Shown here: positions 19,792 to 64,000 of the stretch, one piece after another
Layout of the letters: every line of letters starts with the position of its first letter
Position numbering within the stretch: the stretch's first letter is position 1
Assembly: GCA_963924565.1 (NCBI GenBank)
Contig: OZ004614.1
Span: 10,602,001 to 10,666,000 of the forward strand
DNA: 64,000 bases
Reading direction: 5' to 3'
DNA from: Ascidiella aspersa
Lineage: Eukaryota
The notes under the pieces: model-generated
What the model was told of the DNA's origin: nothing
Database searches by the model: none
The model's input: only the letters and a program-made list of their open reading frames with translations
Made by a program: the position numbers and the translations under genes

Positions 19792-20154
19792 CTTTGTTGC
19801 CTTATTAATTTAATTGGCTATAAATTTGTTAATACTAGCCTAACTTCTCAAAGAAATTGTCTACCTTTTGTTAACTGATGTTATAAAATTATCTTGTTAC
19901 CCACGTTTTTGAATTTATTTCATGTTGATCCATTTAAAATTGTTAAACTGAAATGACATTTACACTGCCATTATATTTTTTGTGTAGCTCAGTTGTGTGT
20001 TATTTGATATGCTGCCATAAATTACGCTGTATAAATGTAGAAAGTCTTCATTGATTATTTTTTAAACTCTTTATGTGTAAATATAAAGGTCCTGATAACA
20101 TAGGTTTGTAACAAAGATTGTAAAACTACTTTCTCGAAACTAATTGCTAGAAAG

Positions 20155-22183: not shown

Positions 22184-22983
22184 ATTTGACAAGCTTTTTA
22201 TCGCCGCTGTCTGTATTGAGACAGCGACTCCTTGCGGCGAGTTTTGCAAAATAAATTTATTCAATAGAGGGCGACAAACAGCCACTTTTGAGCGTTTTTG
22301 TTTATACCTGTATACTGTATTTGTATGTCTAATAGTAGACTGCTTACGATCGAATAATACAATATTAAAACGATGTGAAGAGTCTTTCTGTTTCCAAAAT
22401 AGATTTTAAAAACGATCGACCAGTTTCTCCTGTGTCTTTCATCGATTTATATTGTTAATGCGGTGTGATTAATACTGGTTTAGCAACTAGGATTCTTTTT
22501 AACAAGTTTTGCATTTCGTACTTTTCTATATGCTTACTTTTTTATATCTTTTGCTTAACGTTGTTGTATTTCTTGTATTAAATCTATTTTGTGACAGAGA
22601 GTGGAATAAACTTTACTTTTTTGCGCCTTGTCTTTTTTTCAGCTCTTATTTTTAATGCCGCGGCGTTACCAATTTTAACTGATTGTTGAGAAGAACATTT
22701 TTTTTAAGTTCTTAGGTATATACATTTATTGTATACCGTTATGTGCTGTGACATCTTGATCCCTATTTTGTACTAAGGTTTCCCCAATGCCGGTCGGTCA
22801 TTATTCAAATATATATTTTGCGAAGCTTTCTCTTCACTTGTATATCGGTTTACCCTGTATTCGTACAGCGCATCCACCATTTCTAAAATCTGCCTTATGT
22901 CCCCATAAGCAGGTTTTTCAATAATTCTGTGAAAAAAAAAACGTTAGCCTTTGCTAAAGTTTCTTAACGAATCGGACATCGCC

Positions 22984-25900
22984 ATGAAGCGCAAAAAAGA
23001 CGTGATAGTGGGCACGAAGCGGACGCTCTACCCGGCTGCTGGCGTGCAGTCCGACGTCGAGGCCTTGCTGCAGAAATTCGTCGACACCAACAGCATCAGG
23101 TGTGTGCTTTCCTCTCGGTCTTAACCGTATTTATCAGCGAAAAAACTTACTGCTACACCCGATTCGATCCGTTGGCTTCGCAATGAGTCGCTTTATCCAA
23201 AATGACAAAAATCATGATTTTGAAGCGTTATCGTAACATGGCCCATGGTTAAGATGTTAATTTTTTTGTCTGTCTTTTAAATACTTTGCGATTACACATC
23301 CAGCGAAGCTTGTAATCGTGTTGGATTGTCATTTGATTTCCACACAACCTGATAAAGTTTTTAGTAATTGGATTTGTGATAGGATTTTTCGGTAAATTTT
23401 TTAACTTTTTAAAACTTCTTTTACTCGCCTGACAACAAACCCAAAATAAAACCTAAATTTCCTGAATGTTTTCGAAAATTGGTTACAGGTACGAGGACTT
23501 TGCGCGGCTTTGGCGCCAGAGCAACTTTTCTCTAATCCACTGCGGCAGGGCCGGGCTGCGAGAGAAGCGAGAATTCGTCGAGGAGGCTTTCAAGATCGTT
23601 CTCAAGTTTGCTCTACCGCCCTACAGCTTGCAGGTAACTCGCCTGCCACAGCGCGTGCTAAAAATACAAGTAAATTTGGTTCCATTTTTAATGTGTTTAT
23701 TGCTGTTTACCTCGATAAACGTCAATGAAAATTTTTGTATGTAGCGTCGTCACTGCATTTCGATACACTTTATCCCTAAATAACATGAAGTTGGTTTGAC
23801 TTGTCAGTTGTCAGTTTTTAAAAGTGCTTTCCTTGTTGATAAAGTTCCCTAGAAGTTCATCTGATGCTCCCAAATATCACTTGATTAATTTTAAGGCACC
23901 CTAAAAATGTTTTTACATTAGGTTTTACACAATAATCCATTTGCACAATAATCCATTTGCAATTGATTTACATTTGGTTGGGCATCACTCGCGTTTGAAA
24001 AATGAACCTTGATCGACTTCGCGACATCACGACATCCCGCATTGTAGAAATCCTTCGAACTAACCACTAAAATCAGACTGTAAAAAACTAATGTATTTTA
24101 TAATTCTGATGATATGTGGTGTCCGGCCTTTTTTCCCAATGTGGTTGACTCTTATCATATTGTAGATTCCTATCGTGTCTGGCAATAACTATCTCGGGAT
24201 ATGCGTTAATTCTTGTATCGTTGTCGCCAATATGTGGAATAATATCGGAACTTAGCAGGTAATGTGTTACTACCGGTACCGATCCAACCAAATAGGATGG
24301 AGTTGGATTTTTTAAAGTCACGAATTTCGCAAGTATATTGGGCTTATTTCGCTGTGTGATAATTTTTTTTAGTGTTTCGCTAGGTTTTACCTTTTCGGTA
24401 TCGGTTTTGTTAAATTTGTTGAGTAAACATTCACACATCCCCTGCTAAAATTACCACCGAAACAGCCAAGTTCAATATGATACAACAAGACAAATCACCG
24501 TGTCCAATGCCTGTCACTGTCAGATTTTTAAAGTTTAGTGTATTGACACATAGCAAGGAAAGATTCCTTAATCACCCTTTTCCATAAGTGTACTGGCAAA
24601 TTGACGCGCGGATAAGACCTAATCTCGTCCCCGATCAAGGATTTGCGATAAAACACGATATTACACGCATTACATTACCTAAGGAAGAAGCCAAATCGAT
24701 CTAACATTTTATTCCGGTTGAGGGTGGAAGAGGTTTATTAATCCAACGACCCAGGCAGGCCTAAAGCACACGTTCTTATGTCCGATTATATTCTTAATGG
24801 CTCGTATATTTGTCGACAGGCGTGTAATATTCGTTTAGGGATTATTTATTCCAGATCGGACGGCGACAAATCGAAAATGCAAAATCAATACACTTGAAAA
24901 TAAGGCCGTCGGGGAATCTCTCTCCATTAAAATCGCCATCGAATTGTATTATGTGTTGTAACGAATACGCCCCGTTGATCCATCTACTGACCGTTTCGCT
25001 TGTGTAACCCGACAGGCATCCTTTGAGACTTGTGTGTTGCTTCCGAAAAAGGAATTTGTCTCGCACAAATATAATCTGGTCGCCATAAAAAATAAATTTT
25101 CTGTTGGTACCAACCCTTCTTTTGGTTGGTTGTTAGCAAACATTTTTAGGTTCCGACGTTCCACTTTTGTCATCCGTATATCAAATTACCAGTTCGTCGT
25201 CAAATTTGTTAAAATAAGAAAAAATCATCACACTATTACCAGGAATAGCTTTTACAAGCAAGAAATGCGAGTGTAACCTTGAGCAGAAAAAACGAAAATA
25301 GAAGTGTAATTTCGTTTTTTACCCCGATGTCGTTTGCAATCAGCGATTCTGGGCAGCCTTTCCGTAATCCGCAATTCCACTCCTTCAAGCTGCGCTCGCA
25401 AGCTTTTCAAACAATATCTCAAGTGGCCTTATGCGGATTCCAGCACTACGAACGCCTTTTGCAATCAGCGTCGCCATTTTAATGAAGCGAGTAATCGACA
25501 GATTACGAGCTGCTGTCTATTTGACCAACGTCCATCCGTTCCCGGTCCATATCTCGGCGTATTTGGCGGCTAAGCCACTCAAGTAGGCCCTTCGCGTCTG
25601 TTGCAGTAAGGCCCACGCTCCATGAGCGATTGCCTTTTCGTTCGAGAGAGCCTAAATACACGCGAATCCCTTTGATTGTTTCAAGAAAAGGTGCTAGACA
25701 TCAGAAGATCTCCAAGGCAAGGCACATCAAACGATGGCATTCGGTCACAGATCTGCCTATATGTTGTTTTAACAGTTCATTTTTATCATGCTTGGACTTT
25801 CTTGTTCTTTGGCGGGTCGCTGCCTTTTCACGAATAAGCAAACTTGAAAGGCTAGCGAATAAACAAACAAACCAAACGAGAGATGAAAAGTGACGCACGA

Positions 25901-28900
25901 TTCCTAAAACTCGTAAGATTGCAAATAAAAGTGCTTTGAAAATAACAACATAAAAAGCGTTGCGAAAAATATTGATTTCGAATCAACCCCTTTAAAAGCA
26001 AATAATTTAACCAATAACCTTTAACCGTCAAATATTAGATTTTTTTTCTGAATTTAAACCAACTGTTGTTGTAGCAATAGCTTGCTCACTGCAACTTCGA
26101 AGGTTTGAACTTTGCTCCCTTGGGTCGGCAATATTTTTTTTTGAATGTTTAATTGTATGTATGAATAACCACTGAAGGTATAAGTCTTTTTAAGTTGAAC
26201 AACAGTGGTTAAACATGTTTGCTGTCTTGCGAGGTAATTTGCCGCATCTTGTTTCGCCAACCAAAAACTCAAGAAGCCGACTAAACACTAAAGCAGGGGT
26301 TCTTAACCTTTTTTGTATGTTTTAACTCTTTAACAAAGATGAATATCAGATTTACCCCCAATATATAAAATGGTACTGATTTACTAAAAAACGAAAGTAA
26401 CAAATTACAGTAGGTATATTCAATGCGACGGCTGCCCTTGCTTTTTGGCAACGATTTGTTCAATATTGTCTGGTAAAGTAGTAGATAATGCAAACGAATA
26501 TCAGATTCAACATGAAGTCGGTTTCGTGCTTTGGTTTTGATAATATAAGAATTGCAGAGAAGCCGCATTCGCATAGGTTTTCAAGTTGAAGAAAACGGAC
26601 CCAGAATATTCAGAGCTTGAGTACCTATCTTTGAAATTAACCCTTAAACGGAGAAATTCACCCCCTGGGGTCAATTTACTCCCAGGTTAAGAAAGGCTGC
26701 TCTAACGCCATCGCCTCGTGTATTCTTCAGGTGCGCGTGGGCGCCGTTTACTTGCTGTACGGCCTCTACCACACGCAGCGGCTAAGTTCGAGGGTCAAGG
26801 TTCGAATCCCGCTCTCGTGCTGGCAAGAGGTCGACGCGCTGCATGACGAGGTGCGCTCCAACAAGCACCTCGATATCGATTACGTCATGCGGCTATTGAA
26901 GCACGACGGAGCGTTCGAGTTCGTGGCCTACCCATCGCACCTCACCCTAGGTAGGTTGCATAAAGTTGCGTTTAGCAGTTGATATTTTTAGGATAAGCTA
27001 AATATTTTCAGGGAGAATTGAATGACATTTGTCATTTTTTTCAACATTTATTGCCTTGGTCGTCTTTGCAATGTTAGCCCATCACACCTCACCCTAGGTA
27101 GGTTGCATAAAGCTGCGCTTGGCAGTGGATTTTTTTAGGATAAGCTAAATATTTTCAGGGAGACTTGACATTCGTCATTTTTTGTTAATTTATTGCCCTG
27201 GTCGTCTTTGTAATGTTAACCTGTCGCACCTGCACTCTAGGTAGGTTGCGTAAAGCTGCGCTTGGCAGTGGATTTCAGGATGAGATAAACATTTTTAGGC
27301 CGGCTTGAATGACGTTTGTCCTTTTTTTAATTTATTGTCTTTGACGTCTTTGCAATACTAGCTAAAAACCGTTAACAATGTATTACCACTTTATTTGGTG
27401 TCCACTAACTTATTGTTAGGTTTATTTTGAATAACTCGGTGATACTTTAAAAGCGATAACTAATAACTCGGTGTTAGGTAGAGGTTGAGAACCTATTTTT
27501 TGTTCGAGGAGAATTGACACTGTGTTCAGTGTCCGTGTTGCTTTTCAGCCAGCTGTGCTGAAAAACCTCCCCGCAGTGACTTCTAGTGTTATGGTGGACC
27601 ACGGTGTGGTAATCCTGTCACCCCAATTTCACAACGGCAGTTCTATCCGTGCTATCCACTCCTTTGAGATCTTTTTGAGACTTTTTTCCGGCCACCCTGC
27701 CACGCTGTCGTGACTCTAAATCTGACGTTGCACTCCCCTGAGGGATACGTATATGCTTGGGCCGCTAGTTGCTACTATTCGTTTGAGGATCTGCCATTAA
27801 TGTAACCTGAAATGCAATATCCATACTAGGCTATAGTTTGTTTCCTATATTTTCCCTGGCATTTCCTCTCTCATCCTACAGCTTGTGGCTTTCGGCACAA
27901 CTTTGAACATGCCCGCTAAAGTTCTCAACTACTAAGTAACTTGAATAATAACGATCGACAATTATTTTGGACATGCAGAATATAATGTAAAACTGAATTG
28001 ATATTAGCATGGCTATTTATTTGCTGCCTTTCTTCAAAAATGAATCGAGTTTTTCCGAAATAATAGTTTGGCTGTGTTCGTATGGAGTTAAACTTTTTAC
28101 TGGATACATTTAATTTAGGGCACTCTAGTATGTTTTAATCCGCGACTTTTTCGCCGATCGTGAGAGTTCATTTGGAGGCAACAGGCGTTTTATTACTGCC
28201 CATTGTGCTCCAGAGGTGTCTGACACAAATGAGTATTTGCCATGGTATACCAATATACTGGACTAGGTAGCGTTTTATTGCCCCCGTCCGCATGCTTGTT
28301 TGCTTTATATTGTTGGTCTAGCTCTTATTTGTCCATTCGAATCGGCGAATCCACTTTAAAAAAGTCTTTTTTTGTTTTTTGAAGTGTCTTTACAGCCAGG
28401 AATCGAAATGGTCGGTAAACTTATATGTGCCAAATGACGCGTATATCTATTTGTCGTGTTGTCACAGCCGCCACGTAACGTTTATGTCTGATTGTGTCAT
28501 TTGACGAAGTCACGCTGCCACCATTGCAGACGATGCGAATCGACAACGTATTCGATACCAAACCGTAATCCGGCGTTTACAGACGCTAGACAAAAAAGAC
28601 AAAAGTACAGCAGCCCCAGATGTCGCACATCAAACGCAGGGCTGTTTCCGCCCGCCATTACGCCACGGGCTCCGTTTTACGCGAAGTCCGAAGACGGTTT
28701 ATTGCCGCAGTTTCGTGTAACTTCTGTCATCCCAACTCGCTATTTACTGTTCCACTCTTGGTTGACTGACCGGCCAAATAGAACACTGTATGCATGTCGG
28801 CCGTTTTAAATCCACAAGGCTTCTCTGACTATTTTCGACAACCTGAACCGGTTTAATGACTTTTTCGGAATCTATTGCCTTGTCTGATGCCAACAGAACC

Positions 28901-46900: not shown

Positions 46901-48339
46901 AATATATTCTGATACACTTGTTTGGACACCGAAGAAAGGTTCTGAAAGGCATATTGTCCTGAAACAAAAAGATTGGCGTCGGTTTAGAATCTTTATTGAT
47001 AAACTCGTCCAGGGTTTTACAATGCTCTAAATCTTAGATAAAAGCAAAATTTAGATAACTTTTAATGAAACTTCAAGACTTAAAATTCTTGATAAAAATC
47101 GCTTTCATGCGTTCGACAAAGCGCCTTTCAGGAGAATGCATTGTTTTTGGTTCGAAGCATTTTTCGGAATAAAATATTGCTGTTGATCTTTGTGTTGATC
47201 AACAGAAAAATATGCCACACCAAGTATTTGGACCCAAAACGTGAAATATTTTTTTACATATAAAGATGTGTTGAACAACAAGAAATAAATTTTCGGCCCA
47301 TATAATTAGGTCAATACCAACAAACCCTGTATGTGTTTCCCAACATAAAAATGCCGCCAAAAGTCGTTGTTTAGCGTTATACTACGATCGCTTTTCGATT
47401 TTCTTTTAGAACTTAAATCGAACACTCCTAAAAATGCCACGATCGCCGACCAGAGACGCCAATTAACAATTGACACTCGACTTGGCCGCGACCCAAAACG
47501 CGACCTTCCCCTTTTGTGGTACCACGCCGACAAAAAGCAAACGCCCTTGGCGGAAAACACTACACCACCGACACTCGACATAGCTCACGCCGTACCCCGT
47601 CGGTCCCACACTAAAGCTAGGGCTATTTCACCGACGGGTGCAGGACCAAAAAGCCGCGTTTGTTTAGTGGCTCGTCAGCGGCGGTTTCCGTCTGGGTGCA
47701 GTTGACCGTTTCGCGCGAGGGTCCGAAGCCCTTTCAATCTCCACCTTTTCGCCGCTCTGTGCAATTCGACCGTGGCGAAACGGCGGCTGCCCCGGCGACA
47801 CACCTACCTTCCAACACTGCCGGTCGTACGCGGAATAAAGGCGGTTGCGTGCCTTTTTTGAAATGTCAGCAGCGACGGACGATGCCTTGGCGGTCAGCGG
47901 TATTGGTGTACTTCGATAAAACGACCAGGTCTTGCCTGTTCCCTTACACACACACCGCGCCAAAAATGTGTTTTCTTTTGCGCACCCTCATGTTAGTTTG
48001 CCGTTAACACTGACCGCTTAGCTGTGCCTAACTTAAGCGTACAAGAACACAGCAGTGGTCAGTATGTGGCGGTCAGTGTCAGCCCTCCGGCGAAGCGGAC
48101 AATTCGGAATTCCACATTCTAAAAACCGCGCGACGCTGTTTCGCTCGTTTTGCTCCCTTTTCTCTCTCTCTCTCTCTCTGCTTGGAGACCGGGCGGCGCC
48201 TTGTTTGTGCCTTTTTTTTTAATTCGCAATGCGATGACCACTCGTTCGCCTTTGGACTTGACGTTTCCGAGAGCTTGCCCAAAACACACCAAGCAAAAAA
48301 AAGTGCCACTCAAACATCTCGGGCGCGTTAATTGGCGTT

Positions 48340-48374
<35 letters not shown>

Positions 48375-51300
48375 CTCTTGCTACTCCGTAATCGCCGCGC
48401 TTTGTTTATTTGAGCCTCGGTCGATCTCTCGCCTCTCTTCCCCTGCGCGCCGAGATAAGCGCAAAGAGCAAGCGAGAGGTTTATCTCTCACTCTCGCGCG
48501 GAGCAAAGCAAAAGAGAGCCAAGCGTGCCTTTTTTCTTTGTTGAAGCGCGAGAGAGCGCTCGGCTCCGAACGCGAGGCGCGTATGTATAGTGGTGGACAA
48601 GGTATGCAGTGACCAGAAGCATCTAGGTGCGGTTTTCGACGGAGAGTAACTGCGCGAGCTACTTGGATCGTTCGTTTGGTTAATGCATGCGCCCGAGTGA
48701 AACAGGACGCCGCAATTTGGATTCGGGCCCAAACGCGTTTTAGTGTAGGCTCGCGAGCGCTTGACAGGTATTGGCTTAAAATTGCCGTCAAAGTGTGAGT
48801 TGAGGAGAATTTCTTCGCGTATGTTTTCCGTTTGACGGCGCTTTTCGCCGCAATACACAGGCACGTGTCGCAGCGCCAAGGCTCGCAAGTTTCAAATTCC
48901 GAAACGATTAAGGACTGAGTTGTTGTTTAAACTTACATGCGTGGTTCCGCCGTTGGTTGTGTGAATGTGGAGTATTGTGGAGCTTGCAAAATTAGGTTGA
49001 AGCAGTTCTCAGTTAGTTATGTTTTATGAGTTTATGACCACTTACATTTACTTCTTCAACATAAATATTTTTAGGGATATAAAAAAATCGATTTGAAGTT
49101 TTAAGTCGTTGCTGTAAAACTTCGTTCGCCGCTAGTTGTTAAATTACGCTCCTTTTTGTCGCAATTGACAGAAGTAGTACAATATTACTCGTGCCGAAGT
49201 TCCAACTGCTTAACTCACCAGTTAAGCGACACTGCAGCATCAGTTATTTCGGCCGCATACACCGGTTGGCCGCATACACACTTTAGGATTGCGCGCACAC
49301 CGCTTTAGCCTTGCGTCGTCCGTTGCGCAATTGGCTTTGGCCTGAATATTCCACCGTCACCGACGGGCCAGGTCGCCGCGCGAGATTGCGGGCGCGCGCG
49401 GTCGGTCTGATACTTGGTTTCCTTTGTCCATCCCGGTCACGCGTGGCTGGGCAAAGCCCGGAGAAAAATGCGGCGATTACCCAAAAACGAAAAGAAGAAA
49501 AAAACACAAGTGCGACTGGCCTCTTGCTTTTTACCGTATGCGTGTGCGCGAAGGGCTGCCGGCGATACTGTGAGGCTTGCGTATCGCACTGTCTTGCCAC
49601 CGGTTGCCTGCGGTCGGTCTACCTACCTGACGTTTGCTGGACGCGCTTTTCGCCAGGCTATTATTCTTCAGGGAACGCCGCCCGCTTGCCTTAGTCAGTT
49701 TTTGAGTTTCAGGTCAGAAAAATTGTGTAGTTCACAGTGTTTGGCAGAATTTGGATTGAGTTGTAGCGGTTTAGCGTAAGGTGTTTAGACTATTGTTCAC
49801 TTCGATTTAAAGTTTGTTTCTTATCACGCTTTTCGACAGTAACTAATTCGTCTTTCAGGTGCTTAATTGTTGCCTTTTTGGGGAAAGATCTTATCGCAAT
49901 TGCTGTCATTTTATCACTTATCATTCTTAGCACGAAAATCGAAATGTTGGTAAAGGTACTATTCAGTGAATTAACCTAAATGTATACTTCTTTTTATTTC
50001 GACCGAAAGTTCTATTTTTGTAGTATACAAAGTGAAGAACAATAAGTTATTGAAATAAATGAAGCTTACTAAAAAAAATACTTATTACGATTAAAAATTT
50101 ATCCCTTATACGAAACCGATGGCAGAAGAAGCACAATATGGACTTTTTTGTTTAGTGATCAGTTTGCCTTGTTTTGCTATTCCGCCACCACTTGTTGTTT
50201 ACCGCAGCGTTTCTTACGTCATAATGCCCTTGAACCGTCGAGGTAAACGCCAGCCGCTGGGCAATTTTTCAAAACTTCGACATTAATGTGCATTCAGGAT
50301 TAACCGATATTTTTGTATAGCCTAAAGCTATTCCACGCCTTTTTTATTAATTGTTTAAACGAGCTTGAAAACACACACATACATACAGAGCATAAGGTTG
50401 AGGGTTTCCGGTTGCGTTGTTGTTTTGCGTGGGCACACCGCGATTTACCTGCTGCCTTTGACATTTAAACCGCAGGAATAACCAGCAACCCAGATTTTTC
50501 TACCTGGCCCGCATTTTCTATTTTGCTATGAAATTGCGCTCGCTTTAAAAATGAAGAGCCACCAATTCACTTGCCTAGCTTTCGATGGTTGTTCCCATGT
50601 CTAAAAAACTTTTCGAAGTCAGATAACATCGAATTCGTCACTTCGCCCCAAGTCGCGCCTCCGTATTTTCGTCAGTAATTGCGGATTGAGTCACCGAAAA
50701 AAGGCGTGTTTTCCCTTTTCAGCAGCGTAGCGCGCCTGAAGTAAGCGTTTGTCATCAAAAAAGAAGTCGAAAATTACACTTTTAGCGGTCAACCACGCAA
50801 CAAACAACTGACAAGTCAATGACTCGTGATACCGCAAGCCTTTGCGCATCATTGACGCGCGGCGGTTTTTGAGTCTCTTTGGAATCGAGCATTATAAGGA
50901 AAAGAGCCTTTTGTAGCGGACGGACACTCTTTCACTTTTCAGGTATTTTTTTTCGGGGGGCTAAATGCTACTAAATTGCAAATATTTCGAAAGGACACTC
51001 TTTGACTTTTTAGATAATTTTTCGGGGGGTACATGCTACTAACTTGTAAATATTTCGAACGGACACATTTCACTTTGTACAACATTTTTTAGGCTAAATG
51101 CTTCGAACTTTTGAATATTTCGAACTGTATTCAGCGCAACGCGTTCCATTGGCTTAACCTTAAAGAGAGAGACGCCGCTCTGGCAAAAACAGGCCTTGCA
51201 AATTGGCGCACTGCCCCACTCGGCACAGCGCATCGTCGTTAAAACTACAATACCTAAAAAACTGGCGCCCGCCCACGTAATAACAAAACACGGCGAGCGG

Positions 51301-54300
51301 TCGCGATGGATATGGCCAAAAAGAAAACAACGGCCAATGCTTGTTTGGTCAGCGCCCGTCCCTCTTGTATAGTGGTCGGTTGGTTGGCAAAAGACTGCGC
51401 GCGGGTTATTGTTGCTTGTTGAGGCAGAACCGGGCCTTTTGCTGCCGCCCGCGGGACCGCACCCCTTTGCCAGTAAAATTGACTGGACAATGCCGGGAAT
51501 GTGTTTTCCCAGTATCGGTATTTCAACGCTCGCTCAGGCCTTTTGATTGGTTTCAACCGGGTAAATTCATAAACTTATTTTGCTTATTTTGAGTATTTTG
51601 AAAAAGGTGATCTATACTAGATACGCTACACTGCCCTAAAGTCGTTTTGTGGTTTCTTGGTCGATGTTCAACTGTTTCGTTTCGGGTTGAGCGATGTAGT
51701 AGATTTCCCACCGAGTAAATATTGGTGCTAAATTGTTACATTATTTTTAGACTACAACGGTCTATTCAAGGAGCGCAACTCACTAACGCGTTTGTGTTTA
51801 ATACCTTTTTCGACCGCAATATCGCTGCGACTGCTGTCTGCCGTGCATGTAGCCCCCCCACATTCCCCCCATCTTAAAGGTATCCCCCGCGCTGCGGTTT
51901 TCGCCATAGGGACGCTTCACTGCACTTGCCTTGCGCCTTCACGCAAACGCGGTCAAGTAAAAACCGCAATTTTAACGCTATAAAAATGGCTTCAGTTTGC
52001 TTGATTTTCCTAGATCTGTGTTTTACCCTTTGTCCAGCTTCACGCGGCCTTCTTCGGCAGTGTGACCGGTTTGGTTGGAAAATTTCTTCTCGGCTTTTGT
52101 GGTTTATCTTGGCGAATTGCGGAACAAGGTTTTGCTGGTCTTTTTATGGCGAACATAGGGTGATTATAAACTGCATCCAGCCTTGTTGCTTAACCGCACT
52201 CAAAATGGCCGCATTTTAACAGATGTTCGCTAACGCTGGACTTTGGACTTGGTTTTAATTTGCGTGTTATGGTTTATTTTGAGAACACCTGCTCTCGTCT
52301 TATTTCTTTTGGACTATAATGAAAAAAATAACGCCATCCTTCATTTAAAACCGACATTTTTGGCCTCTTGCGTTTGTAAAAAAGCAGAGCATTGTTATTT
52401 TCTTATCGAGACATTTATCTTTTAATCGGTTTATTGATAAATATTTTCGCGATTTCCTACTGGTTTCACAAAACCATATTTTCGTTCGGCTTGTTTCCTT
52501 AAATATTTGTGTTTTTATGCTTTTGTATATTAGGTTGCGTTTAAATAGTCAAGAAAGGTATTTCACTTATAGTTCAGGATGTATTATTTATTACCTTTTT
52601 ATTTTTGTGTTTTGCAAATCCCTAACCTCACAACGAAATAACGTGTTTTTTTGGGGGGGTTAAATATTGGAACGGCCAAAAAGCATAGTTATTTCAGATA
52701 GGGACCAAGTAATGGTATGTCTGTTTTTTTTAATACCCTTTAATTTCCTGTTTGTTAAGGATGTCTGGTATGTAGCAACGAATTAACGTATTTCGATTTA
52801 CTATTTACGGTATTTTCAGCGTTGTAAACTAGGTTATGTTTTCCTATTTTTTTTGCGCGATTTCATTTGATGTAGAAATTAAAGGCAAAGGTTGCAAAGT
52901 GTAATCGCTTTGGGCATCGATTTGATTTCATTCCCGCTAAAGCGCCGCGTGTATATTACTGCCGTCAATCCGTTTTAAATTAAATAAAAATTAAATAAAA
53001 AAAATTTTAACTACATCCTTTTTACTTGCTTTCGACAGAGCATCTGTATAATTGCGACGAAGAACCTGCAAGTAGCGAGTCAAATGCGACCGCTGAAATA
53101 AGCTGGCAAGGCAGCAGTAGCGAAACCGGTCAAAACCAGCAGCAAGAACAACAAGTACTGGACGAAGACAGCCTCGGTCAGCTATCGGCCGTCCACGACA
53201 AGTACCACCTGCTAAAGTGTCAACTCAATCAACTACGTGAGTGTAGAAAACTTTTGCAGTACATTTTTTCATGTTCCGAATTCGGATTCGATTTTGTATT
53301 GCGACATAGCGAGCTTTTCGATTTAAAACTGCGAGAACTGCTGAACAAAGAAAAATTCGATCTTGTATTTCCTCTTATTGTTTCTTAACAATGCTTAGCA
53401 GTGCGACCAATAATTTAAGTTTTTAAAAATTGCCTTCCTAGGGAATTGAATTTAAATTTATATAAATTAAGAGTGTTACTTACAACGGGTATAATATAAA
53501 TTTCGCTAGTTTTCCGCCCCTTAGTCGAAAGAAGTTCTCCTTTATGGCGAACCGTAACCAATTGTCATATAGTTGTTTAATTCATAAAAACCAAAGCTGT
53601 TTTTAATTTTATCATAAAACATGCAAGCTTTTTACTAAATAGTCGTCCAACCAGTGCGAACCAATGACCCAGTTTGATGATCAGTGATTACTATTGTATG
53701 CCATCAGTCTCCTTATAGCTGATTTTTTATAAATTTTCAACACAAGGGGTGCGGGGTATTTAGGCATTGTAATATTTAAACAAAATCAAATATTTATAAG
53801 AGTTGCGTATGGGTGTTCACTCGGCCTTTTTGACCTGCTTTAAAAGTTTTTTTTTGTACCAGTCAAAAGTTCGTTGTTAGTTTGAAAGAGTTGCTTACCG
53901 CGTGCAATCTGCACCGGTCCTCTGCGAACAGCTCCGCGCTATTTTTTTTTTGTTCATTCATTCATCCATTCCGAGAATGACAGGGGAACTCGTCTGTTGT
54001 TTTACCCTCGAAATTAAACAAATACGAAGCGAAATGTTTTGTCGGTAAATCACGCCCGCGCTTAATTGCAATGTGTCGCCTAGCCGTTTTTACGATCAGA
54101 ATTACTTTCGGGTTTAGAGGTGCGGACCTGCACACCCGCAATAACCGCCTGCTCGTCGCAATAAAGTTTCTGTTATGAACCACCCTCGTATGACCTTGAT
54201 AGAACGCTTTAAGTTTTCATGATGCCTTTTTCCCTTTAAGCCAGTGGATTTTAAACGTTTCTAGTGGATTTAACTCTCGGTGCATACAAAACAGCAATTA

Positions 54301-57300
54301 TTTTACTTAAATTACAATTGTTTTTAAGTCAAAATAAAAAAACTTGTCAGATGCAGACTCACAAATATAAATCTCTTTACCGATTTACATCGCCATTTTG
54401 TCGAGCATTTAATGTGGAACGCTGCTATAGTTGAATTGCTTTTACCCAATACTCATTACAAGCTCAGCGATGCGTTTCAATCGACCTTTCCCTCAGTTTC
54501 GAAGTTACGCATTCCTGTTTTTTTTTTCAAGTTTCTTCTTAGCTTCCTGGTCTCCGTTGATTGACGGTGCGCGACGGCGAATCGCTGTACACAAATTACT
54601 GCTTTCTTAGAAATAGTTTCGTCTTTTCGGACGGACTTGAAAATTGAAACGCGTCGCCGGAAAAACAATGCGCGCGTTCGCTCAACGTCACTGTCAACAA
54701 CTGCGGACAAAACTGTAAACAGCGGCTTACTGGCCCCAACTTTATAAACAAATTTGTCTAGGTTTTTGAAAGCGACTTTCACATTATTTTTCTGCTTTTT
54801 TTATGTCTATACTGTGGCCTATGCATCTTGTAAAACAAACGGGAAAAGTGCTTTGTTGATTAAAAAAAAAATTAAATCCCATGGACTTAATCAGCGCGCA
54901 ATGACTTGCTAAGTTCAGCCATTTTTTTAAAATTAAAGTAAACGGTTTTAGGTGTATCTATGCCGCGTTATTTGTTACAAAATAAATTGCCGGTGTGATG
55001 TGCGGACCGCGTTTGGCAAAGTTTGAAAGAAAGCCGAAACCTGTTTCAAGTCTTGTACTCGTCGCCTATTTGGGTAGACCAGGCACGAAGCACTGTGCTA
55101 GGTGCAAATTGCGTCCAAGTTTAGAACGCTCTGTTTACGCGTTTGAAGCTGGCGTTTAGAAGGACCGGCTACTCTAATGCCAGTTTACCGCCGTACTTGT
55201 GTATGGTGCAGTGCTGCCGTGTTTACGCTTTTCTTGTCTGCCTCGACCGAATGCTATATCACCGCGCCAACTTGAGCGCTGTCTAATCGCATTTTAAAGG
55301 TACGGCGACTGGCCGGCCTTCTGCAATTATTTACTGTCCATGGGAATTTGACCGCTTCAGATTTATGACCGCTGCCTGGCAAATCGCCCTTTCGCTCTCT
55401 TGCCTTTACTCCGAGATTAAATTACAGAGCATGCAAATTACAGTTATTACGGCTGGGGGGTTCTTGGAATCAATAGGCAAAGGGTGCTGTAAGTGCTTTG
55501 ACCAATCGGTTGTACTTTGGGTTACCTTTTAAATATTTGCATCGCAAGGTTTGCTTTTGGCTAATCTAATCCATTTTTGGACAGATAATATATACAGGAT
55601 TGTATTTTCAATCCGGTTACTCCTTTTAAGCCACTTTAAAAACTGTTTTGGTACGTTTGAAAACGTATAATTTACGCTTAGTGGGTGTTTTTATATTTAT
55701 AATAATATTTAAAAAAAAAACGTATAATTTACTACGAAAAAAAACTGATTTTTTTTAAACACCTGTAATTTACATTTTTGTGGCAGTTTTAATTTTTTAG
55801 TTAGCAATATATCGGCACAACGCGCTGCCTCAGCCCCTAAATAGTTTTTATTGCTGTTAGCTGCTACGCTGATGTCCGATGCTTTTTACTCCAAACCTTT
55901 TTTTCATTGCGTTACTTTCCTTTGATTGACAGGCGGCGGCGAGGCCGGAGCGCCCAGCAGCTCGCTTGATCTCATTCAGAGTGACATCGTCGAGACGCTT
56001 CTGAAGATCAACGAGGAAGTTATTCACCTCCCATCTACCTCAGTCCTCTCTCCGGACCGAGACAATACAGCCAACCGGGACGTGTAAGTTCGGCCGTCCT
56101 TGAGTTTTTGTTGCCCGTGTCGTTATTGCCTTTGTGTAAAACAGGGATCCTTAAACTGGTGTCTGTGGACCCATTGGGGTCGGTGAACTACTTTTAGAAG
56201 GTCCCATGAAGGCCTAATTAAAATATTAGTGAATATTTAAGAAGTAATCAATTTTTTTCAAGAAAACAGTTTAAAAAATAAAACCGCTTTGCAAAAAATA
56301 AAACCGCTTTGCACTGAATGTATTTAGACTCCATTTCACTTTCACATTTTTGGACCGAAATCAGCAGATTTCAAAAGTTTATTTGTACTGAGACGTCATT
56401 TTTGAAAATTTCTTACCTACCGTGGTTCACGCTAAGCCAAAAAAATGAGGGGTCTGCGTTAAAATAGGTTAAAAAACCCTGATTTAAAATATATTTTCAC
56501 TTATCCGTGTATTTAAGTGGGTAATGCCTATATTTTCCATCGCATTTATTTTACTTTTTTTTCATTAAGATCGCATTTCGGGTAATTCCAGGTAACTTTG
56601 AGTTGATTAATTATTTTTTTCTCTGCAGCATTGAATTATCTTTTTTTATTGACAAATAAACATTTTTAGCAACTCGTTTTCAACTATACATGGAGTAGAG
56701 CAGTTGCCTAAAATTTACCTACAATCTTCTTGCACCATTCCCGCATTTTCGCCACAGTTTTCGTCGCCATGCCGCAGCTTTTTTTGCGCTTTTTTGAGTG
56801 GCAATCGCCAGGCCAGGACGCCGTCACGGATACCCGACACCACCAAGCCTGCTTACGCGAACTAGTTGAAAATACCAAAAACTGCGGACAGTCTTGTTCG
56901 CCTGGCCAACCATGTGTTACAGGAATGCGGGTCCGCAGCATTCGCTTGAAGCTTATTGGGGCGTGGTAAACACGCAACCCTACTGGCTGGACATGGGGCT
57001 ACTTATTTCCGGGGTTAGCTAGCATTTTAGAAAGAGCGCAGTCGGCTGACCGATTCGCAGTTATTTCTACGTTAAAGCGACGGCGAAGCATTCCTGTCGG
57101 CCACTTATTTTGTCACCACTGACCACAGTTTTAGCAATTACTTGCTGCTGAGGCGTACAATTTAAAATAAACACGGCCGCTAACCTATTTTACGACAGAC
57201 TTTTATGGTACTTCTGCTGGATTTGTAGCAAATGTCGTTCCTCCTAACTTGGGCCAACCTAAACGTTATTATAAGATCATATTTTTATCGGAATTTTAGC

Positions 57301-57822
57301 GGGATTTAGTTTTGTAAGTGGTAGTCTTTATAGTGGAGGGCTACAGATAAGTTCAAACCTGGTTTAACATGGTAAAAACATATAAAAATGATTTCGAAAC
57401 TGTTTGATTGTATTGTGTATGATATGGAAGGCTTTCTTTTCCAGTGCGGTCCACATTTTCTATAATATTATTCCAAGAGAACTTCTTTTTATCACATATT
57501 TTACCGTTTTATGTAATGTAATGCGTTTTACAACATCTGCATGTTTAAAAAAGGCACATTGTTTGATTTCTCAAAATGTGCGCGCTTTGCTGACTTTGCC
57601 TCTTTGGGCAGTCAGCAAGCCTTGCGGTCGCGTCCGACCGGTCAAGCGTACAAAACCTAGAAAATACCGCCGCCTAAACTGGACGTTCCTCTTTTTCCGC
57701 AGCGCCGGTGACCATTCAAGCGTGTCGGACGTCATTTCTGCCCGCGATCGAGCCAACCGAATCCAGGAAATCAAAAAGAGAGCGTCGTCCGCCCGCGCTA
57801 GCTCGCGATCCGGAGCACTAAG
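22984..57822 (+). CDS. SNAPC1: snRNA-activating protein complex subunit 1 (SNAP43), exons 1-6; 3' end runs into the FoxH locus
   Basis: Exons 22984-23099, 23489-23633, 26731-26950, 53039-53236, 55933-56083 and 57703-57822. All introns are GT-AG and phase-consistent (2,0,1,1,2). The protein has GVQSDVEALLQKF…RYEDFARLW…LPPYSLQVRVGAVYLLYGLYHTQ…VHDKYHLLK…SLDLIQSD…DRANRIQEIKKRA, collinear with vertebrate SNAPC1. Confidence 0.9.
26294..26699 (-). mobile_element. Non-autonomous hAT (Buster/Charlie-like) element with a transposase C-terminal remnant
   Basis: CAGGGGTTCTTAACCT terminus. The minus strand encodes broken LCECGFSA…IKTKARNRLHVESDIRL…KKQGQPSH* (hAT dimerisation domain). Confidence 0.75.
26931..27360 (+). 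repeat. Three ~145-bp tandem copies including the SNAPC1 exon 3 donor
   Basis: CACC…CTAG|GTAGGTTGC(A/G)TAAAG recurs with donors after 26950, 27097 and 27240. Confidence 0.85.
30858..31161. mobile_element. hAT MITE family (CAGTGGTTCT TIR), copy 1
   Basis: Inverted relative to 32919..33222 and 38875..39169, with shared internal sequence. Confidence 0.75.
32919..33222. mobile_element. hAT MITE family, copy 2
   Basis: TIRs CAGTGGTTCTCAACC…GGTTGAGAACCACTG. Confidence 0.8.
38875..39169. mobile_element. hAT MITE family, copy 3
   Basis: Same TIRs and internal sequence, with a perfect 8-bp TSD ACATATAG. Confidence 0.82.
48160..48371. repeat. Two (CT)n microsatellites within a CpG-rich island
   Basis: (CT)n runs at about 48160-48179 and 48342-48371. 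Confidence 0.8.
56142..56481. mobile_element. hAT MITE, inverted relative of 2925..3238
   Basis: CAGGGATCCTTAAACT…GGTTAAAAAACCCTG termini and shared internal segments. Confidence 0.65.
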
Positions 57823-58403
57823 GTACGATTTTTTCCGATTTATTTTAGCGAGCGAAAGACCGAGCCTTTTTCTACTATTCTCTTATGGCTTTGTGCCCTT
57901 GTTTTTTGTGGCAAGCGCTGATCGACCTTTAAAATCCCGCCAACTGACCTTATGATTCACTACGACCACCATATCTGACATTTAAAAATAATTTTACGCC
58001 TAAAAGGCTTGCACACAACCCTTATAAAATCAGTATTTGACGCTTTGAAAATGAACCTTTCGAATTCTGTTAGTGAACACTACGATCACACGGCAGTTTG
58101 CGTCGCAACGCGTTTCGCGTTAAATTATGTATTTATGCCTAATATATAGCATAGGTTAAGCATAACCTGTACCACACGTTGCACCGCGGCCAACGTGTTG
58201 TGTGTGTTCTGCGCAGCGTTCTTATCGCGAGTCCCGCGGCTATTCGTGCGCCCCGAACGACGCCCAACGCTTCGCAAATACGCAAGTTGTTTAGAGAAAT
58301 TTCTCGGAACGCGCGTGCGCCTGTGTGTAATCCCGCTCGTGTGTTGCGTAAAAACGCGCCCGCCGACCAAAAAGTGACGCGTCGCTACTCTTTGCCACCA
58401 GTG

Positions 58404-61400
58404 ATGACGTCATGCAGCGATGAGGCTCTAGCGTTGGCAAGCAGCCATTGGCCCTCCAGCATCGCGTCGATGACGGAAACAGCAGCGGCACCGAGCATCT
58501 CCCAGTTGCAGCAGTCGGTCCTGGCCTACAGTAACGCGGTCGATGCCCAACAGGAATCCCCCGCCGCCCCTGGAACCACGGACGCCCTGGTGAATGCCGC
58601 CGTCCTGCGACAGAAGCTGGAACTCTATTGGAGCCAGGTGCTCCAGTTTCAAGAGCAAAAGAGCAAAGTATCGCCTGCTACGCAAGCCTTACCGATTTCC
58701 ACGCCCAATCCGGCGGCCATCGTAGCATCTCGAAGTCTACCGCCGCTTGTTGACTCCGTAGCGGAGGCGAGGAGCATGATGATGCAGCGACTCATCAACA
58801 GCGGGAATCCGACATCCGTGTCCAGTCCTCTTCACCACAACAACCAGCAGCAGCAGCAGCAGCATCATCCGCTGTCTAGTCTCGTCGCCATAGCGGCCAA
58901 CCAAAAGGCCTTCAGCGAAGCGGTGTCCGCCAGCCACTCCCTCGGCTCCCTGCTCCCTCCTCCGCCACTCCTACCGCTTTGCTCCTCTTCCTCCCACCAG
59001 GGAGCACTACCACCACCACCGCCTCCTCAGTACAGCTTTCCGCAATCACTTATTTCGCCGCATCGCCACACCGCTCCGTCTACTGTGCAAGCCCACCGCC
59101 AACCCCAAGCTACCTCGAGCCCCCTCGATCTTTCAAAAGTCCACGACTCGCCGCCTCCGCAGCGCAAAAAGACAAGTCTGCCTCCGGCTAGCTCAGCCGC
59201 GAACGACAACCAACAAGACGCCGTTCCCCTTGACTTGAGCACCTCAACGAAGCGCCACCATTCAGACGACCGCTCAACCATCTTGCCGGACAAGCCAGTG
59301 CTGCAAAGCACGCCGCTGAGGAAATACACCGAGCCTTCGTCGGTCGCTGTGACGTCTCTTCCGCCAATTGCATCCACAACGTACGCTTCTGGTATTCCCC
59401 AGACCACGCAAGCCCTGTCGGCCATCAACGCTCAACATCTCCTAGCCCTAGGACCGTATCTGCAGAACAGCGCTGCCGCTAACCGCGTGCCGCACTCCCG
59501 ACCCTTTCCCACCCACAACGGAGCCCTGCCCCAGTACCCCCCGCCCCAGCCGGCCCCACTGGGCAGCGACTACTTGCAGAAGTGGCTTCAGGCAGCACAG
59601 CAGCAGCGCCAGCAAGTGGCCACCATTGCCCAGCCCCCGACCAAGAAACCGCGAACGGTGAGAGAGTTGTTTTTTTATTCTACCGCTTAAGTTGTGTAAT
59701 GAAGATTGCCATTTCTTGTACGTGTGTAAGTTTAGGTCATTTAGTGGTTGCGATTAGATAAACTTGATGGTATATATTCCTCCAAACCACTATCGACTTT
59801 AGTTTCACCAACTTCCCAAGCATACGCACAGAAATTCTAATTCCGCTTCACTTTATTTTGTTGCCTGTCGACTAACACAACACTAGGAAACTTTGCGCAA
59901 TCGTAAAACTAGTGCTACGTCGCTGGTAATGTTACGTTTATAAAAGCGCTACGAAAAGTTTTTTTTATGTTTGTTTGCTGTTTAAAAAAGCACTACTGTC
60001 AAAATTAACCGAGTGTCGGTTTTTCGCAGGACGACTTTCTCGCCGCCGCCCAACTCCAATTCAACGCCTTTAACGCGTCCAAAGCGGCTTCGGTGGCAGC
60101 TGGTGGCCACCAGGCCGTCCAAACCGCGCCCGGAGCCCAACAGACGCGCCCCGGCGCCCGCCAAGTGGGCCTTAATCAGCAACCAACCGCGGCCAACGGC
60201 GCCAACGGCGGCGCTTCAAGGTCCAGTGGCAAGCGGTACAAACGCTACGCGAAGCCGCCCTATTCTTACGTTTCGCTCATTACCCTCTCGATTCTGAGCT
60301 CGCCCGAGAAGAAGCTGCGCCTCTCACAGATCCTCAAGCGCATCTCCGAGATGTTCCCCTTTTTCAACGGCTCCTACCAGGGATGGCGCGACTCTGTCCG
60401 GCACAATCTCTCACAGAACGAGTGTTTCGTCAAGGTGAGCGCGCCCGTCTTTTTGTTTGTTTTATGTTTGAGTGCTTTTGATTTATTCCAGTGCTTCCCA
60501 ACGTTTTTCGGTTCGCGGCCCACTTTTAATGCAAGTTTATTGTGCGACCCACAATAAAATTTGTTTAGCCATAATTTTAAATGCAACTAATTAGAAATAA
60601 GATAAACAAAGCCTGCATCTTTACTACTGGCGTATGTACTAAAATAGTTAATGCGACAAAACACATTTAATTGTTACGTATTTGTTACTTTGTTGCTCAA
60701 ATGTTACGGAATGATTGCAATAATTTTCCGATATAACAGAAAACTAACATTTAGAAATTCTTCGCCACCCGCCGACCCACTGGTTGGGAAGCACTGCTTT
60801 AGGGACATTTTACGACTTTTTCTTCGGGTCAAATGTTTGAAAGGAATAAGTCCCATAGCATCAAGCGCAAAATATTCGGGAACTTTTTTTTAAAGAATAA
60901 AAAATAATTTAACCGACCAAAAACAACATTGCTGGTTTTCTTTACAGCTAAACATTTCGGTTAAACGAAAATTATGTAATTTGCGACCAAACAGTTTTGA
61001 AACTTTCTTGTAACGTTTTCGAATCGACGCCATCTGAAAAAAACGTGTCATTTATGAGAGATCAAGCTGTAAATATACGATTTGACAATTGACGATTGAC
61101 ATTTGCCATACGTAAATGTTGTGCATATTCAATATAACTAGATGTTAGTGCAACGAAACCTAGACTTCGTTATGTTTTCTTTAAAAGAGATTTGTTGTTT
61201 ATGTCGTTATGAAAATTACACTTAACCATTTTGCCGACCGCTTATTTTCGGGGAAAATTTTTTCTGGGGATGATTTTTATCTTAGAAACTGCCGGAAGAT
61301 TGTTGCTATTGCATCAGGTTCCCAGTTTTTCAGATGCACTATTAAATATGAATGTTTTTTAATTAGACTTTTCGTTTACATGTTTACCCCATAAAGTCTC

Positions 61401-62454
61401 CTAAATGCGAGTTTATTTCAATATTCGTTATTTTGGGGGTACAACTTTTTCATTTTTTTGGCGACGTTAGTTATCCGCACACTGCAGTTGCGAATCGCAT
61501 AGTAATTTAAACTAGGCAACGTTTTCTCAAGGTTGCAATTTTAAGTGGAGTGGTCTGTATCTCCCGATCTTATCACACAGCCCACATGGCCGCTGATTTC
61601 CTATCTCCTTACGGCAAAATGACAAATGGTAACTTTGCGGAAAAAAGAGCGCTTTCAAATTTTGTGTGATTAACCCTCGGCGCGGTTTTGCTCATGCAAC
61701 CCGTTGTACCCAGTTTCCTACCTAATCGCCCGAAACCGCCCTGAATAATTGATGCCAACCAGCCGCCGTCTGTTTTGCAGGTGCTCAAGAACCCGTACCG
61801 GCCCACGGCCAAGGGCAACTACTGGACGGTCAACGTGACGGCCATTCCGCACGAGCTCTTGCTTCGCCAGAACACGTTGGTGTCGCGATACGCACAAGAC
61901 TCCGGATACCGTTACCGCAAGGACCTGACCGACGTCTTCGACATGATCAGCGGCGAAGTGCGCGTCAATATCCCGCGGTACGTGTTCGATGGCGCCGATC
62001 TCGTCGAAGACCCGGCCGCCATCATGGAGTCGCTGCTCTTGGAAGAGAAAGGCGCCGACGACGATAGCGGTGGTATTGGTGCGGCGGGAGCGATGCCAGC
62101 GCACGGCGGTAGGGTTTACTCGCTAGCAGACATGTTCAATCAAGACGACTTCATCGAGGAGGACCTGCTGCGTCAGCATCAGCACCACGGCAACCGGTGG
62201 AATGGCAAGGCACGCTCTAGAGCTGCTCAGAACAAGGCGGCCAAACTCCAGCAACAGCAACAGCAGCAGCAGCTTCATCAACAACAGCTCCAACAACAAC
62301 AACAACAACAACAACAACAGCAGCAACAGCAGCAACAGCAACAGCCCTTCCAGCAGTACATGAACAGCATGGAGTCGCAGAAGCTCGCCCTTCAAATGAT
62401 CACCAACCAGCAACAGGCTTTCAGCACAGCCAACACCATAACCACCAGTAGCAC

Positions 62455-62485
<31 letters not shown>

Positions 62486-63160
62486 ATGATCGCGCAGCAG
62501 CAGGAGATTCTGGCCAAGGCGCTGTCGGGCCAGATGCAGGGCTGCTTGCCCACTCTGCTGCAAAGCATCTACGCAAAGAGCCAGGCCGCGCAAAGTCGCG
62601 CCGCCGAGGACGCGGAGGCTGTGGTCCCGGTCGCAAAGTCCCCTGTACAGTCTCCCCCCGCTACAGTCGCTACAAACCATTCCACCCACAGCGAGTTTGA
62701 GCACGCCAACTTGGCCGCCAAGTTGGAGCCGGCGAGTGGCGACGAGCCTATGGCCGAACACAACTGGAATCAAAACAACGCCAAGCGCAGTCGACGCAAG
62801 GGAGTGCAGCCGATGCGACGCTACTCGTCCAACGACTCCGGCGTCAAACCGGAGGCAAGCCCGCGCGCTACCAGCGTCGTTGACAGCGGCATCGTCGGTT
62901 CCTTGTCTCCGCGCTCGCCCACCCGGTCCTTTTGCTCCAGTGAGCCCGACGTCGGCCCCGTCGGCGGCCTCGCGATCGACCAGTCGTCGCCCGTGCGCTC
63001 GCAGTCGTCCGACGTCTCGGCCGTCGACACGCTCTCGTCGTCGCCGCGTGACGACAGTGATGACGTCATCGTGTCGCCCAATAGCTTCGCCCCGCCGTCG
63101 TTTGTGCTTTTCGGCGCCGCGGCCGCCGCCCGACCGATGGAGACCGGCAAGACCATGTGA
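58404..63160 (+). CDS. FoxH: Forkhead box H (FoxH1/FAST-like) transcription factor, about 1,012 aa from ATG 58404, possibly extended N-terminally by SNAPC1
   Basis: Exons 58404(or 58217)-59657, 60030-60434 and 61781-63160, with phase-0 GT-AG introns. The forkhead domain [13 protein letters not shown]…FPFF…[20 protein letters not shown]|[23 protein letters not shown]…LLRQNT…KDL carries FoxH-type features. Confidence 0.9.
60489..60796. mobile_element. hAT-type MITE in a FoxH intron
   Basis: TIRs CAGTGCTTCCCAAC…GTTGGGAAGCACTG. No clear TSD. Confidence 0.7.
62249..62486 (+). repeat. CAA/CAG polyglutamine tracts in FoxH
   Basis: Interrupted Gln tract of about 30 residues at 62249-62345 and a 10-Gln run at about 62456-62485. 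Confidence 0.9.
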
Positions 63161-64000
63161 AGAGCTAAACTCTCGGATAACGATTTGAAGATAAGTGAGG
63201 TTTTTACAGAAGAAGAATATTTTATGGATTCGTCTCGGATGGTTCCTGGATGCATCGTACGTCATATGCGTTACGTCATAGACACGCCCTTTTGCTTGTC
63301 ATTGTGCCGCTCAGATGTGCTTCTGTATTTTGAGGCTCCCGAGCATTGACCTTATATCTCTTAACCTTATTGGTCAGCAATTATTTGCTGTTCTCACAAG
63401 AGATATTACACACTATATATTTTTGTTTTTAGCACTCGCTTTATTTAAACCGCATGCCAACGCATTCAAGGCCTGTACATCGCCGGGCGCCTGTTATATA
63501 TATATATATATTGCCAAAGATTTCGCTGTTATCTCTACACTACTATGCCTGTTTATTTTATTTTTTTTTTGTATAACATCACGAACTATTTATCTCAGGG
63601 AACTCACGCTTTTCAGGGATGGCACAAAAACTACAAAGTGGCCAGAAGAACATGCGGTCTGGCCACGCGTCTTGAGTATTGACGGTGTCTGAAAAAGTTA
63701 AACGATATCATAAAATTAAACGTTTCTGTCTGCCGGTTTCACTAAAAATAGACCTTTGTTTGGCTTCCGCTTGAAAGATTCTGTCGTGGAACTCGCAAGC
63801 TTAGGCGTAAATGACACGTGGAACTGTAAGGTTTTCTACGCAACACTCACACGTATATACACAAGTAGGCGAATCACGCCCCCCCCCCCCCCCCCCCCAG
63901 TTAAAGTCGCCGTTGTGCAGCATTGTACATAGACAAGCTGGACGGCCAAAATGCAGAGGGTCCTATGCTGCCGGTCTCGTGCCTGTATAGTGCAGTGTTT

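Follow-up and report, generated by a model that had tools for sequence, protein, structure and literature searches.

FoxH nested in an intron of SNAPC1 in an ascidian genome, with a conserved splice acceptor two nucleotides before the FoxH start codon

Introduction

Bicistronic mRNAs with an overlapping stop and start, on which the downstream frame is translated by termination-reinitiation, are mainly viral. A different two-gene arrangement, to be seen beside the unc-60-type terminal-exon switch, is the cholinergic locus unc-17/cha-1 of C. elegans, in which, according to PMC3875643, one gene lies on the same strand within an intron of an unrelated gene, and splice choice after the shared upstream exon, a single 5′ untranslated one, gives either of two products acting in one pathway. 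In Ciona, operons resolved by a spliced leader (SL) run head-to-tail on one strand without intercistronic DNA and with the acceptor just before the downstream ATG; the upstream mRNA ends at the acceptor AG (PMC1488885), and gene models often wrongly show loci of this kind as fused genes (PMC2760879). SL addition requires an unpaired acceptor, whereas paired acceptors favour cis-splicing (PMC1488885, PMC3074122).

Here, a locus is described from an ascidian window, i.e., the whole stretch of 64,000 nt that was analysed (G000:C8:10602001-10666000, from a genome of 308.6 Mb), in which the gene for the forkhead factor FoxH lies inside SNAPC1, on the same strand. As in unc-17/cha-1, the host is an unrelated gene and upstream exons appear to be shared, with splice choice giving either product. 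Unlike in unc-17/cha-1, the shared exons (at least 4-6) are not untranslated but encode conserved SNAPC1 sequence, the nesting is in intron 6, the two frames have 20 nt in common, and a subunit of an snRNA transcription factor is paired with a forkhead factor. The Ciona operons are alike in the head-to-tail order on one strand, in the acceptor just before the downstream ATG and in the presence of SL genes in the genome; however, SNAPC1 does not end at the FoxH acceptor but goes on past FoxH, and its donor appears to be cis-spliced to that acceptor. With reinitiation mRNAs of the viral type the likeness is one of geometry alone (the upstream frame ends no more than 20 nt from the ATG of the downstream one), and the upstream frame may be absent from the FoxH mRNA. 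In the main texts of the open literature searched, no published description of SNAPC1/FoxH nesting was found, and FoxH is mentioned in PMC4133040 in the references only. The nested structure is already contained implicitly in public annotations, and it may likewise be visible in existing Ciona tables of gene models or SL sites.

Results and discussion

SNAPC1 continues beyond FoxH

Four genes follow one another on the plus strand of the window, namely an intronless frame that we take, from its sequence, to be FEN1-like, APC15 (identified by a Pfam match), SNAPC1, and FoxH, the first three of which likely form an operon upstream of the FoxH locus. The closest protein matches for the window genes came first from Phallusia and next from Ciona and Clavelina. 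The FEN1-like frame, APC15 (four exons, 20155-22609) and SNAPC1 stand head-to-tail at 18651-23099, with 364 and 375 nt between one stop and the next ATG.

The SNAPC1 model starts with the coding part of exon 1 (22984-23099), placed by GT-AG sites and a translated match to Phallusia SNAPC1, and continues with exons 2 (23489-23633) and 3 (26731-26950), which match the SNAPC1 domain PF09808 at E values of 1.2e-11 and 2.2e-20 (45.5 and 74 bits against a curated cut-off of 23.8). Intron 3 (26951-53038), at 26,088 nt the longest of the 12 introns, is followed by exon 4 (53039-53236), exon 5 (55933-56083; GT-AG model, Phallusia match and length arithmetic) and exon 6 (57703-57822; GT-AG model, Phallusia match and the metagenome locus L021 described below), which ends in a phase-2 donor. 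Intron 6 starts at 57823, passes the window end at 64000 and reaches exon 7 at C8:10674456 (14,633 nt), and the ten introns other than 3 and 6 measure 389-3097 nt. A search of the same genome with Phallusia SNAPC1 gave eight matches, every one on the plus strand of C8, and two of these, which belong to C-terminal exons, are found 16-17 kb beyond the stop of FoxH. Seven more exons (7-13) were placed 9–17 kb past FoxH, outside the window, ending at C8:10682794. The 13-exon GT-AG model encodes 617 aa with no internal stop, is colinear with the SNAPC1 of Phallusia, Clavelina and Styela, and is 55% identical to the Phallusia protein over 443 columns (45% over the last 98), the support for the low-complexity exons 8-11 consisting of splice signals, frame and alignment. 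The join of exons 6 and 7 reads ALR|YISSDP, equivalent to ALRYINTSP in Phallusia. A HMMER scan recovered SNAPC1 homologues for exon 3, for which a word-indexed search had returned no match; the best among its 134 hits (661, 704 and 727 aa) extend past 'LRY' and have a common C-terminal domain.

Because SNAPC1 exons 7-13 resume beyond FoxH, FoxH sits within SNAPC1 intron 6, with all three of its coding exons on the same strand as the host: exon 1 (58404-59657), which aligns with Phallusia FoxH from residue 1, exon 2 (60030-60434), which carries the forkhead domain (PF00250, E 2.9e-22), and exon 3 (61781-63160), which runs to the stop of a 1012-aa protein. That this architecture holds for FoxH as a whole is very probable. 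The protein was assigned to the FoxH subfamily through PF00250 and its best named relatives rather than a tree, the region of the Phallusia ortholog retrieving ascidian sequences and then vertebrate ones mostly named FoxH1, which acts as a Nodal effector in vertebrates (PMC3102743). An earlier note on this DNA had taken a 323-aa protein to be free SNAPC1 and had set two acceptors 185 nt apart, 58217 and 58402, against each other; given the SNAPC1 exons past FoxH, the main free product would instead be the 617-aa protein that skips FoxH, and the true choice would lie between exon 6 to FoxH and exon 6 to exon 7, whose acceptor is 14.6 kb downstream.

Exons 12-13 (L017:6744-7794) encode a C-terminal domain of ~100 aa found in 4 of the 134 SNAPC1 hits, all ascidian-like and the same sequences from which its profile was built. 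The Atlas model of this domain gave matches to parts labelled PF31078 (TM 0.82-0.85) and to clusters with DUF7869, DDE_1 or Peptidase_C48; judged from the model, the domain is possibly transposon-derived, and it is absent from the predicted 323-aa isoform. High-copy repeats, with depths hundreds of times the background, lie in SNAPC1 intron 5 (about 56200-56450) and in FoxH intron 2 (60490-60800).

Probable splicing from SNAPC1 exon 6 to the FoxH acceptor

Four sequencing runs (X1-X4) were placed on 52900-64000. The DNA runs X1 and X2 were continuous across the intron. X3, whose library type is not on record and which is taken as RNA from its spliced pieces, yielded a contig of 3923 nt (contig 17) with pieces matching SNAPC1 exon 4 and the three FoxH exons, and hence spliced. 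In this contig, exon 4 occupies record positions 2387-2586 and 58400-59656 occupies 867-2117; the gap between them, 269 nt, equals exon 5 plus exon 6 minus 2, the two being the shared letters AG. In addition, the X3 bin depths of 6.5 and 4.31 agree to two decimals with a contig that covers exon 6 and then resumes at 58400: at 58094-58464 the depth of 4.31 is that of 58400-58464 alone, whereas 16.6 would be expected with a start at 58215. No X3 contig lies over 57823-58399, including 58217–58399. The 57822^58402 junction is thus inferred from the lengths and depths of a single contig, which add up exactly, rather than read from a listed joint, and it points to a FoxH mRNA spliced from a SNAPC1 exon; a single contig is, however, not proof of a single transcript. 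A further 1337 nt of contig 17 lie upstream of exon 4, beyond the stretch examined, which leaves room for SNAPC1 exons 1-3 (479 nt) and APC15. X4 consists of raw reads, of which about 6% were read, at a sparse depth of about 1-5; its bin 58094-58464 holds about 412 letters, which would take no fewer than 7 reads were all of them past 58402, and a few reads upstream of 58402 are possible. No loose end at 58402 was seen among the matches listed, at an X4 depth of about 5. An end of SNAPC1 by read-through of the exon 6 donor (stop at 57955, 360 aa) was rejected in view of the existence of exon 7 and of the lack of any X3 contig across 57823-58093.

The acceptor itself (58381-58403; AG at 58400-58401) stands 2 nt before the FoxH ATG at 58404 and has a TGAC at 58375, as the earlier note had read from the sequence. 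Joined to the phase-2 donor at 57822, it would add SDDVMQR and a stop at 58421-58423 to 316 aa of SNAPC1, and the end of the predicted 323-aa frame (58402-58423) overlaps FoxH codons 1-7; this reading of the note is likewise confirmed, and the use of 58402 from exon 6 agrees with the contig arithmetic and with conservation in L021. The description of the site as more pyrimidine-rich than 58217 holds for the fraction (0.76 vs 0.59), but its tract is C-rich whereas acceptors of the locus are T-rich. By sequence, 58402 is the less typical acceptor of the two, because its C-rich tract scores -5.2 against +4.2 for 58217 (-2.4 for the orthologous L021 acceptor) in a crude matrix of 17 sites, 14 from this locus and 3 from L021. 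No T[AG]A[CT] motif occurs in the last 69 nt before the L021 acceptor. A second in-frame AG at 58418 was discarded as a candidate, the AG being missing in L021.

Conservation in other ascidians

A metagenome scan gave five loci from 92 pattern matches, among them L021 (overlapped by L020), which holds a FoxH ortholog with SNAPC1 exons 4, 5 and 6 upstream. The exon 6 donor is kept, the acceptor (CAG|TG ATG) lies 2 nt before the FoxH ATG as in the window, and the SNAPC1 frame ends in SDDVLRR with its stop in the same place. Intron 6 shares chance words only between the two loci, whereas identity is 84% over the 38 nt around the acceptor and start. A non-coding element upstream of exon 4 (49416-49470) matches L021:3557-3611 at 78.6% over 56 nt (E 6e-5). 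A search for SNAPC1 exons 7-13 in the 9.4 kb downstream in L021 gave chance hits only, and the conserved exons would probably lie farther downstream.

Clavelina RefSeq places both proteins under a single gene, LOC143463139, with isoform X1 for FoxH and isoforms X2-X4 for SNAPC1, and an independent Clavelina annotation lists the N-terminal part of SNAPC1, FoxH and the C-terminal part of SNAPC1 in this order (CAK8697084, 86 and 88). Near-consecutive identifiers in C. savignyi (H2ZI60, a fragment of SNAPC1 that breaks off at the boundary of exon 3, and H2ZI64, FoxH) and in Styela (XP_039264726/735) are only a hint of adjacency, SNAPC1 and FoxH being listed as separate neighbouring genes in Styela. 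The FoxH N-terminus M-[TM]-[ST]-C-[SG]-D-[DE] is common to the window and L021 and to Phallusia, Ciona and Clavelina, whereas Styela and P0147 lack it, so that the protein read from Met 58404 matches three named ascidian FoxH proteins and L021. UTR variants are suggested by RefSeq, where a single FoxH protein stands under three accessions for Ciona and under two for Clavelina. The metagenome ascidian (L023, L024) and Styela (P0149) have a further FoxH-like gene that is more distant, and the flanking sequence available for it gave no SNAPC1 match.

Possible routes to the FoxH protein

The locus is real and conserved, and is best described as a terminal cassette that is nested in its host and shares exons with it. 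FoxH likely serves as this alternative cassette: splicing from the donor of exon 6 would lead either to exon 7, with FoxH skipped over 14.6 kb to give the 617-aa SNAPC1, or to 58402, out of frame, to give the FoxH mRNA; the donor would thus choose between a near, atypical acceptor and a far one. FoxH transcripts would most likely start inside intron 3, either with a first exon of their own or by SL addition at the then unpaired exon 4 acceptor, so that exons 4-6 would form a 471-nt leader, along which ribosomes would scan past short uORFs to Met 58404, and NMD would be escaped. As an overall explanation, the nested cassette is modestly favoured, and for the intron-3 start as the main route to FoxH, which we infer only, the chances are about even. 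The routes to FoxH considered here can coexist, and the mode of translation would depend on where the transcript's 5′ end lies: leader-type with exons 4-6, bicistronic with exons 1-6. The suggestion of the earlier note that the short-SNAPC1 mRNA may be bicistronic remains plausible in this wider form, leader-type or bicistronic, in view of contig 17 and the L021 acceptor.

Exons 4-6 of the window contain one ATG only, in exon 4, opening a uORF of 5 codons, and those of L021 contain four, with uORFs ending 177-381 nt upstream of the FoxH ATG; in both loci together, all five ATGs open uORFs that end 177-408 nt before it. An in-frame SNAPC1 Met in these exons would create a uORF overlapping the FoxH start. 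Met is absent from this region in 5 of 7 ascidian-like sequences compared with 7 of 85 among the remaining homologues (a coverage filter let through 85 of 127 rows, and two non-SNAPC1 hits were left out), the exceptions being P0003 (5 Met) and P0013 (2), both unnamed and placed among the ascidian-like sequences by similarity. This lack fits leader use but is suggestive only, and the signal is weak because ascidian SNAPC1 proteins are related and contain little Met in general (about 0.7-1.7% outside exons 4-6); exons 1-3, too, have few ATGs (3, with 4-6 expected). Intron 3 may be the seat of FoxH enhancers or a promoter, and window 48000-49700 is a candidate FoxH promoter or first exon. This segment is GC-rich, carries GA repeats and a donor-like site near 48602, and includes the conserved element 49416-49470; a comparable donor-like site lies near 3004 in L021, upstream of its element.

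Splicing of exons 1-6 to FoxH, from the FEN1-APC15-SNAPC1 unit, could instead give a bicistronic mRNA encoding the 323-aa SNAPC1, with ribosomes reinitiating 20 nt back from 58423, which is rather unlikely to be the main explanation. Reinitiation after an ORF of 323 codons is inefficient in most animal mRNAs, and such an mRNA without it, having two introns downstream of the stop, is a predicted NMD target, in which case the splice would tune SNAPC1. The geometry would nonetheless fit, as in both species each of the three frames of the spliced mRNA meets a stop no more than 20 nt from the FoxH ATG. The stop over FoxH codons 6-7 is retained in the two species and needs GAT, which serves 3/13 and 4/14 Asp codons of FoxH exon 1, yet its chance level is about 7%; D-[DE] occupies positions 6-7 in all five FoxH N-termini of the M-[TM]-[ST]-C type. 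Moreover, the 323-aa form retains the PF09808 core and resembles an ordinary SNAPC1, 25 of 85 non-ascidian homologues ending within 30 aa of its end column, and exons 1-3 together with APC15, if they filled the 1337 nt of contig 17, could favour this route, which leaves the lack of in-frame Met in exons 4-6 unexplained. It is unlikely that in ascidians generally a single transcription unit gives a natural bicistronic mRNA on which a functional short SNAPC1 ends over the FoxH start and FoxH is made by conserved termination-reinitiation, and that FoxH skipping yields a long SNAPC1 extended by a domain of possible transposon origin; if the reinitiation reading were true, the splice switch would couple transcription of snRNAs, including SL RNA, to a Nodal-pathway factor.

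Two further explanations concern the sequence between exon 6 and the FoxH ATG. An independent FoxH start within intron 6, with the SL added at 58402 or no splicing there and the cis junction as a side product, has a low probability. It would suit the separate gene listing in Styela, the GC- and CpG-rich stretch 58151-58401 (GC 0.56, CpG o/e 1.68) and any X4 reads upstream of 58402, and a 16-nt SL branch is probably trimmed from contigs by assemblers. Against it stand the X3 contig, which goes from exon 6 into FoxH with none over 57823-58399, the merging of both genes in the Clavelina annotation, and the preferential cis-splicing of acceptors paired with an upstream donor (PMC1488885). In favour of SL addition, a pattern of the Ciona SL (PMC7986045) plus donor had 573 genome matches against 1 control match. 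The fusion proposed in the earlier note, a 1391-aa SNAPC1-FoxH protein from the 57822^58217 join, keeps the FoxH frame through the candidate acceptor (AG 58215-58216) and a 185-nt linker, together 58197-58401; the acceptor is within the top 1.6% of 1161 intron-3 AGs by the matrix, and the X4 bin total leaves space for linker reads. However, the open frame of the 62-codon linker (58218-58403) is within chance (1973 of 20000 dinucleotide shuffles, about 10%, stay open), X3 has no contig on 58217-58399, and none of 22 AGs in L021 yields an in-frame fusion, the FoxH frame there being open just 24 codons upstream. Furthermore, the 87 FoxH hits in the range of 510-1624 aa are no longer than 1069 aa and none lists PF09808, and Forkhead was found in none of 15 scanned SNAPC1 hits (the 4 best of 134 and 11 others, mostly long). 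On these grounds the fusion was rejected as the main product; as a regulated product it is highly improbable, and as a minor species-specific isoform it is doubtful. The three-protein switch of the note accordingly keeps its stand-alone FoxH, whose Met 58404 matches ascidian N-termini, but not its fusion as a conserved product, and the nested cassette is the more orderly arrangement.

If ascidian FoxH is made via exons of SNAPC1, a housekeeping gene, its dose would be in competition with that of full-length SNAPC1 for a single donor. Gene models and RNA-seq counts as well as reporters and knock-downs would then be confounded for either gene, and RefSeq already merges the two in Clavelina. The same exons would be coding in one mRNA and leader in another, and so be doubly constrained, apparently throughout the main groups of ascidians. 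Since this is a chordate that trans-splices, the locus would make cis- and trans-splicing directly comparable at one acceptor.

Other features of the genome and window

SL RNA gene-like tandem arrays with a 584-nt period occur at G000:C3:5218799-5450447 and elsewhere, with 573 matches genome-wide. In the window, two copies of a membrane-protein-like ORF, the first shorter, lie ~5.3 kb apart (1077-1673 and 6408-7400), and the exons between them are presumably aldolase-like. Frames at 10183-13699, several of them in different phases, are taken to be Gag-, protease-, RT- and integrase-like and apparently form a broken LTR retrotransposon, and a long tandem repeat region with repetitive minus-strand ORFs occupies 16461-18257.
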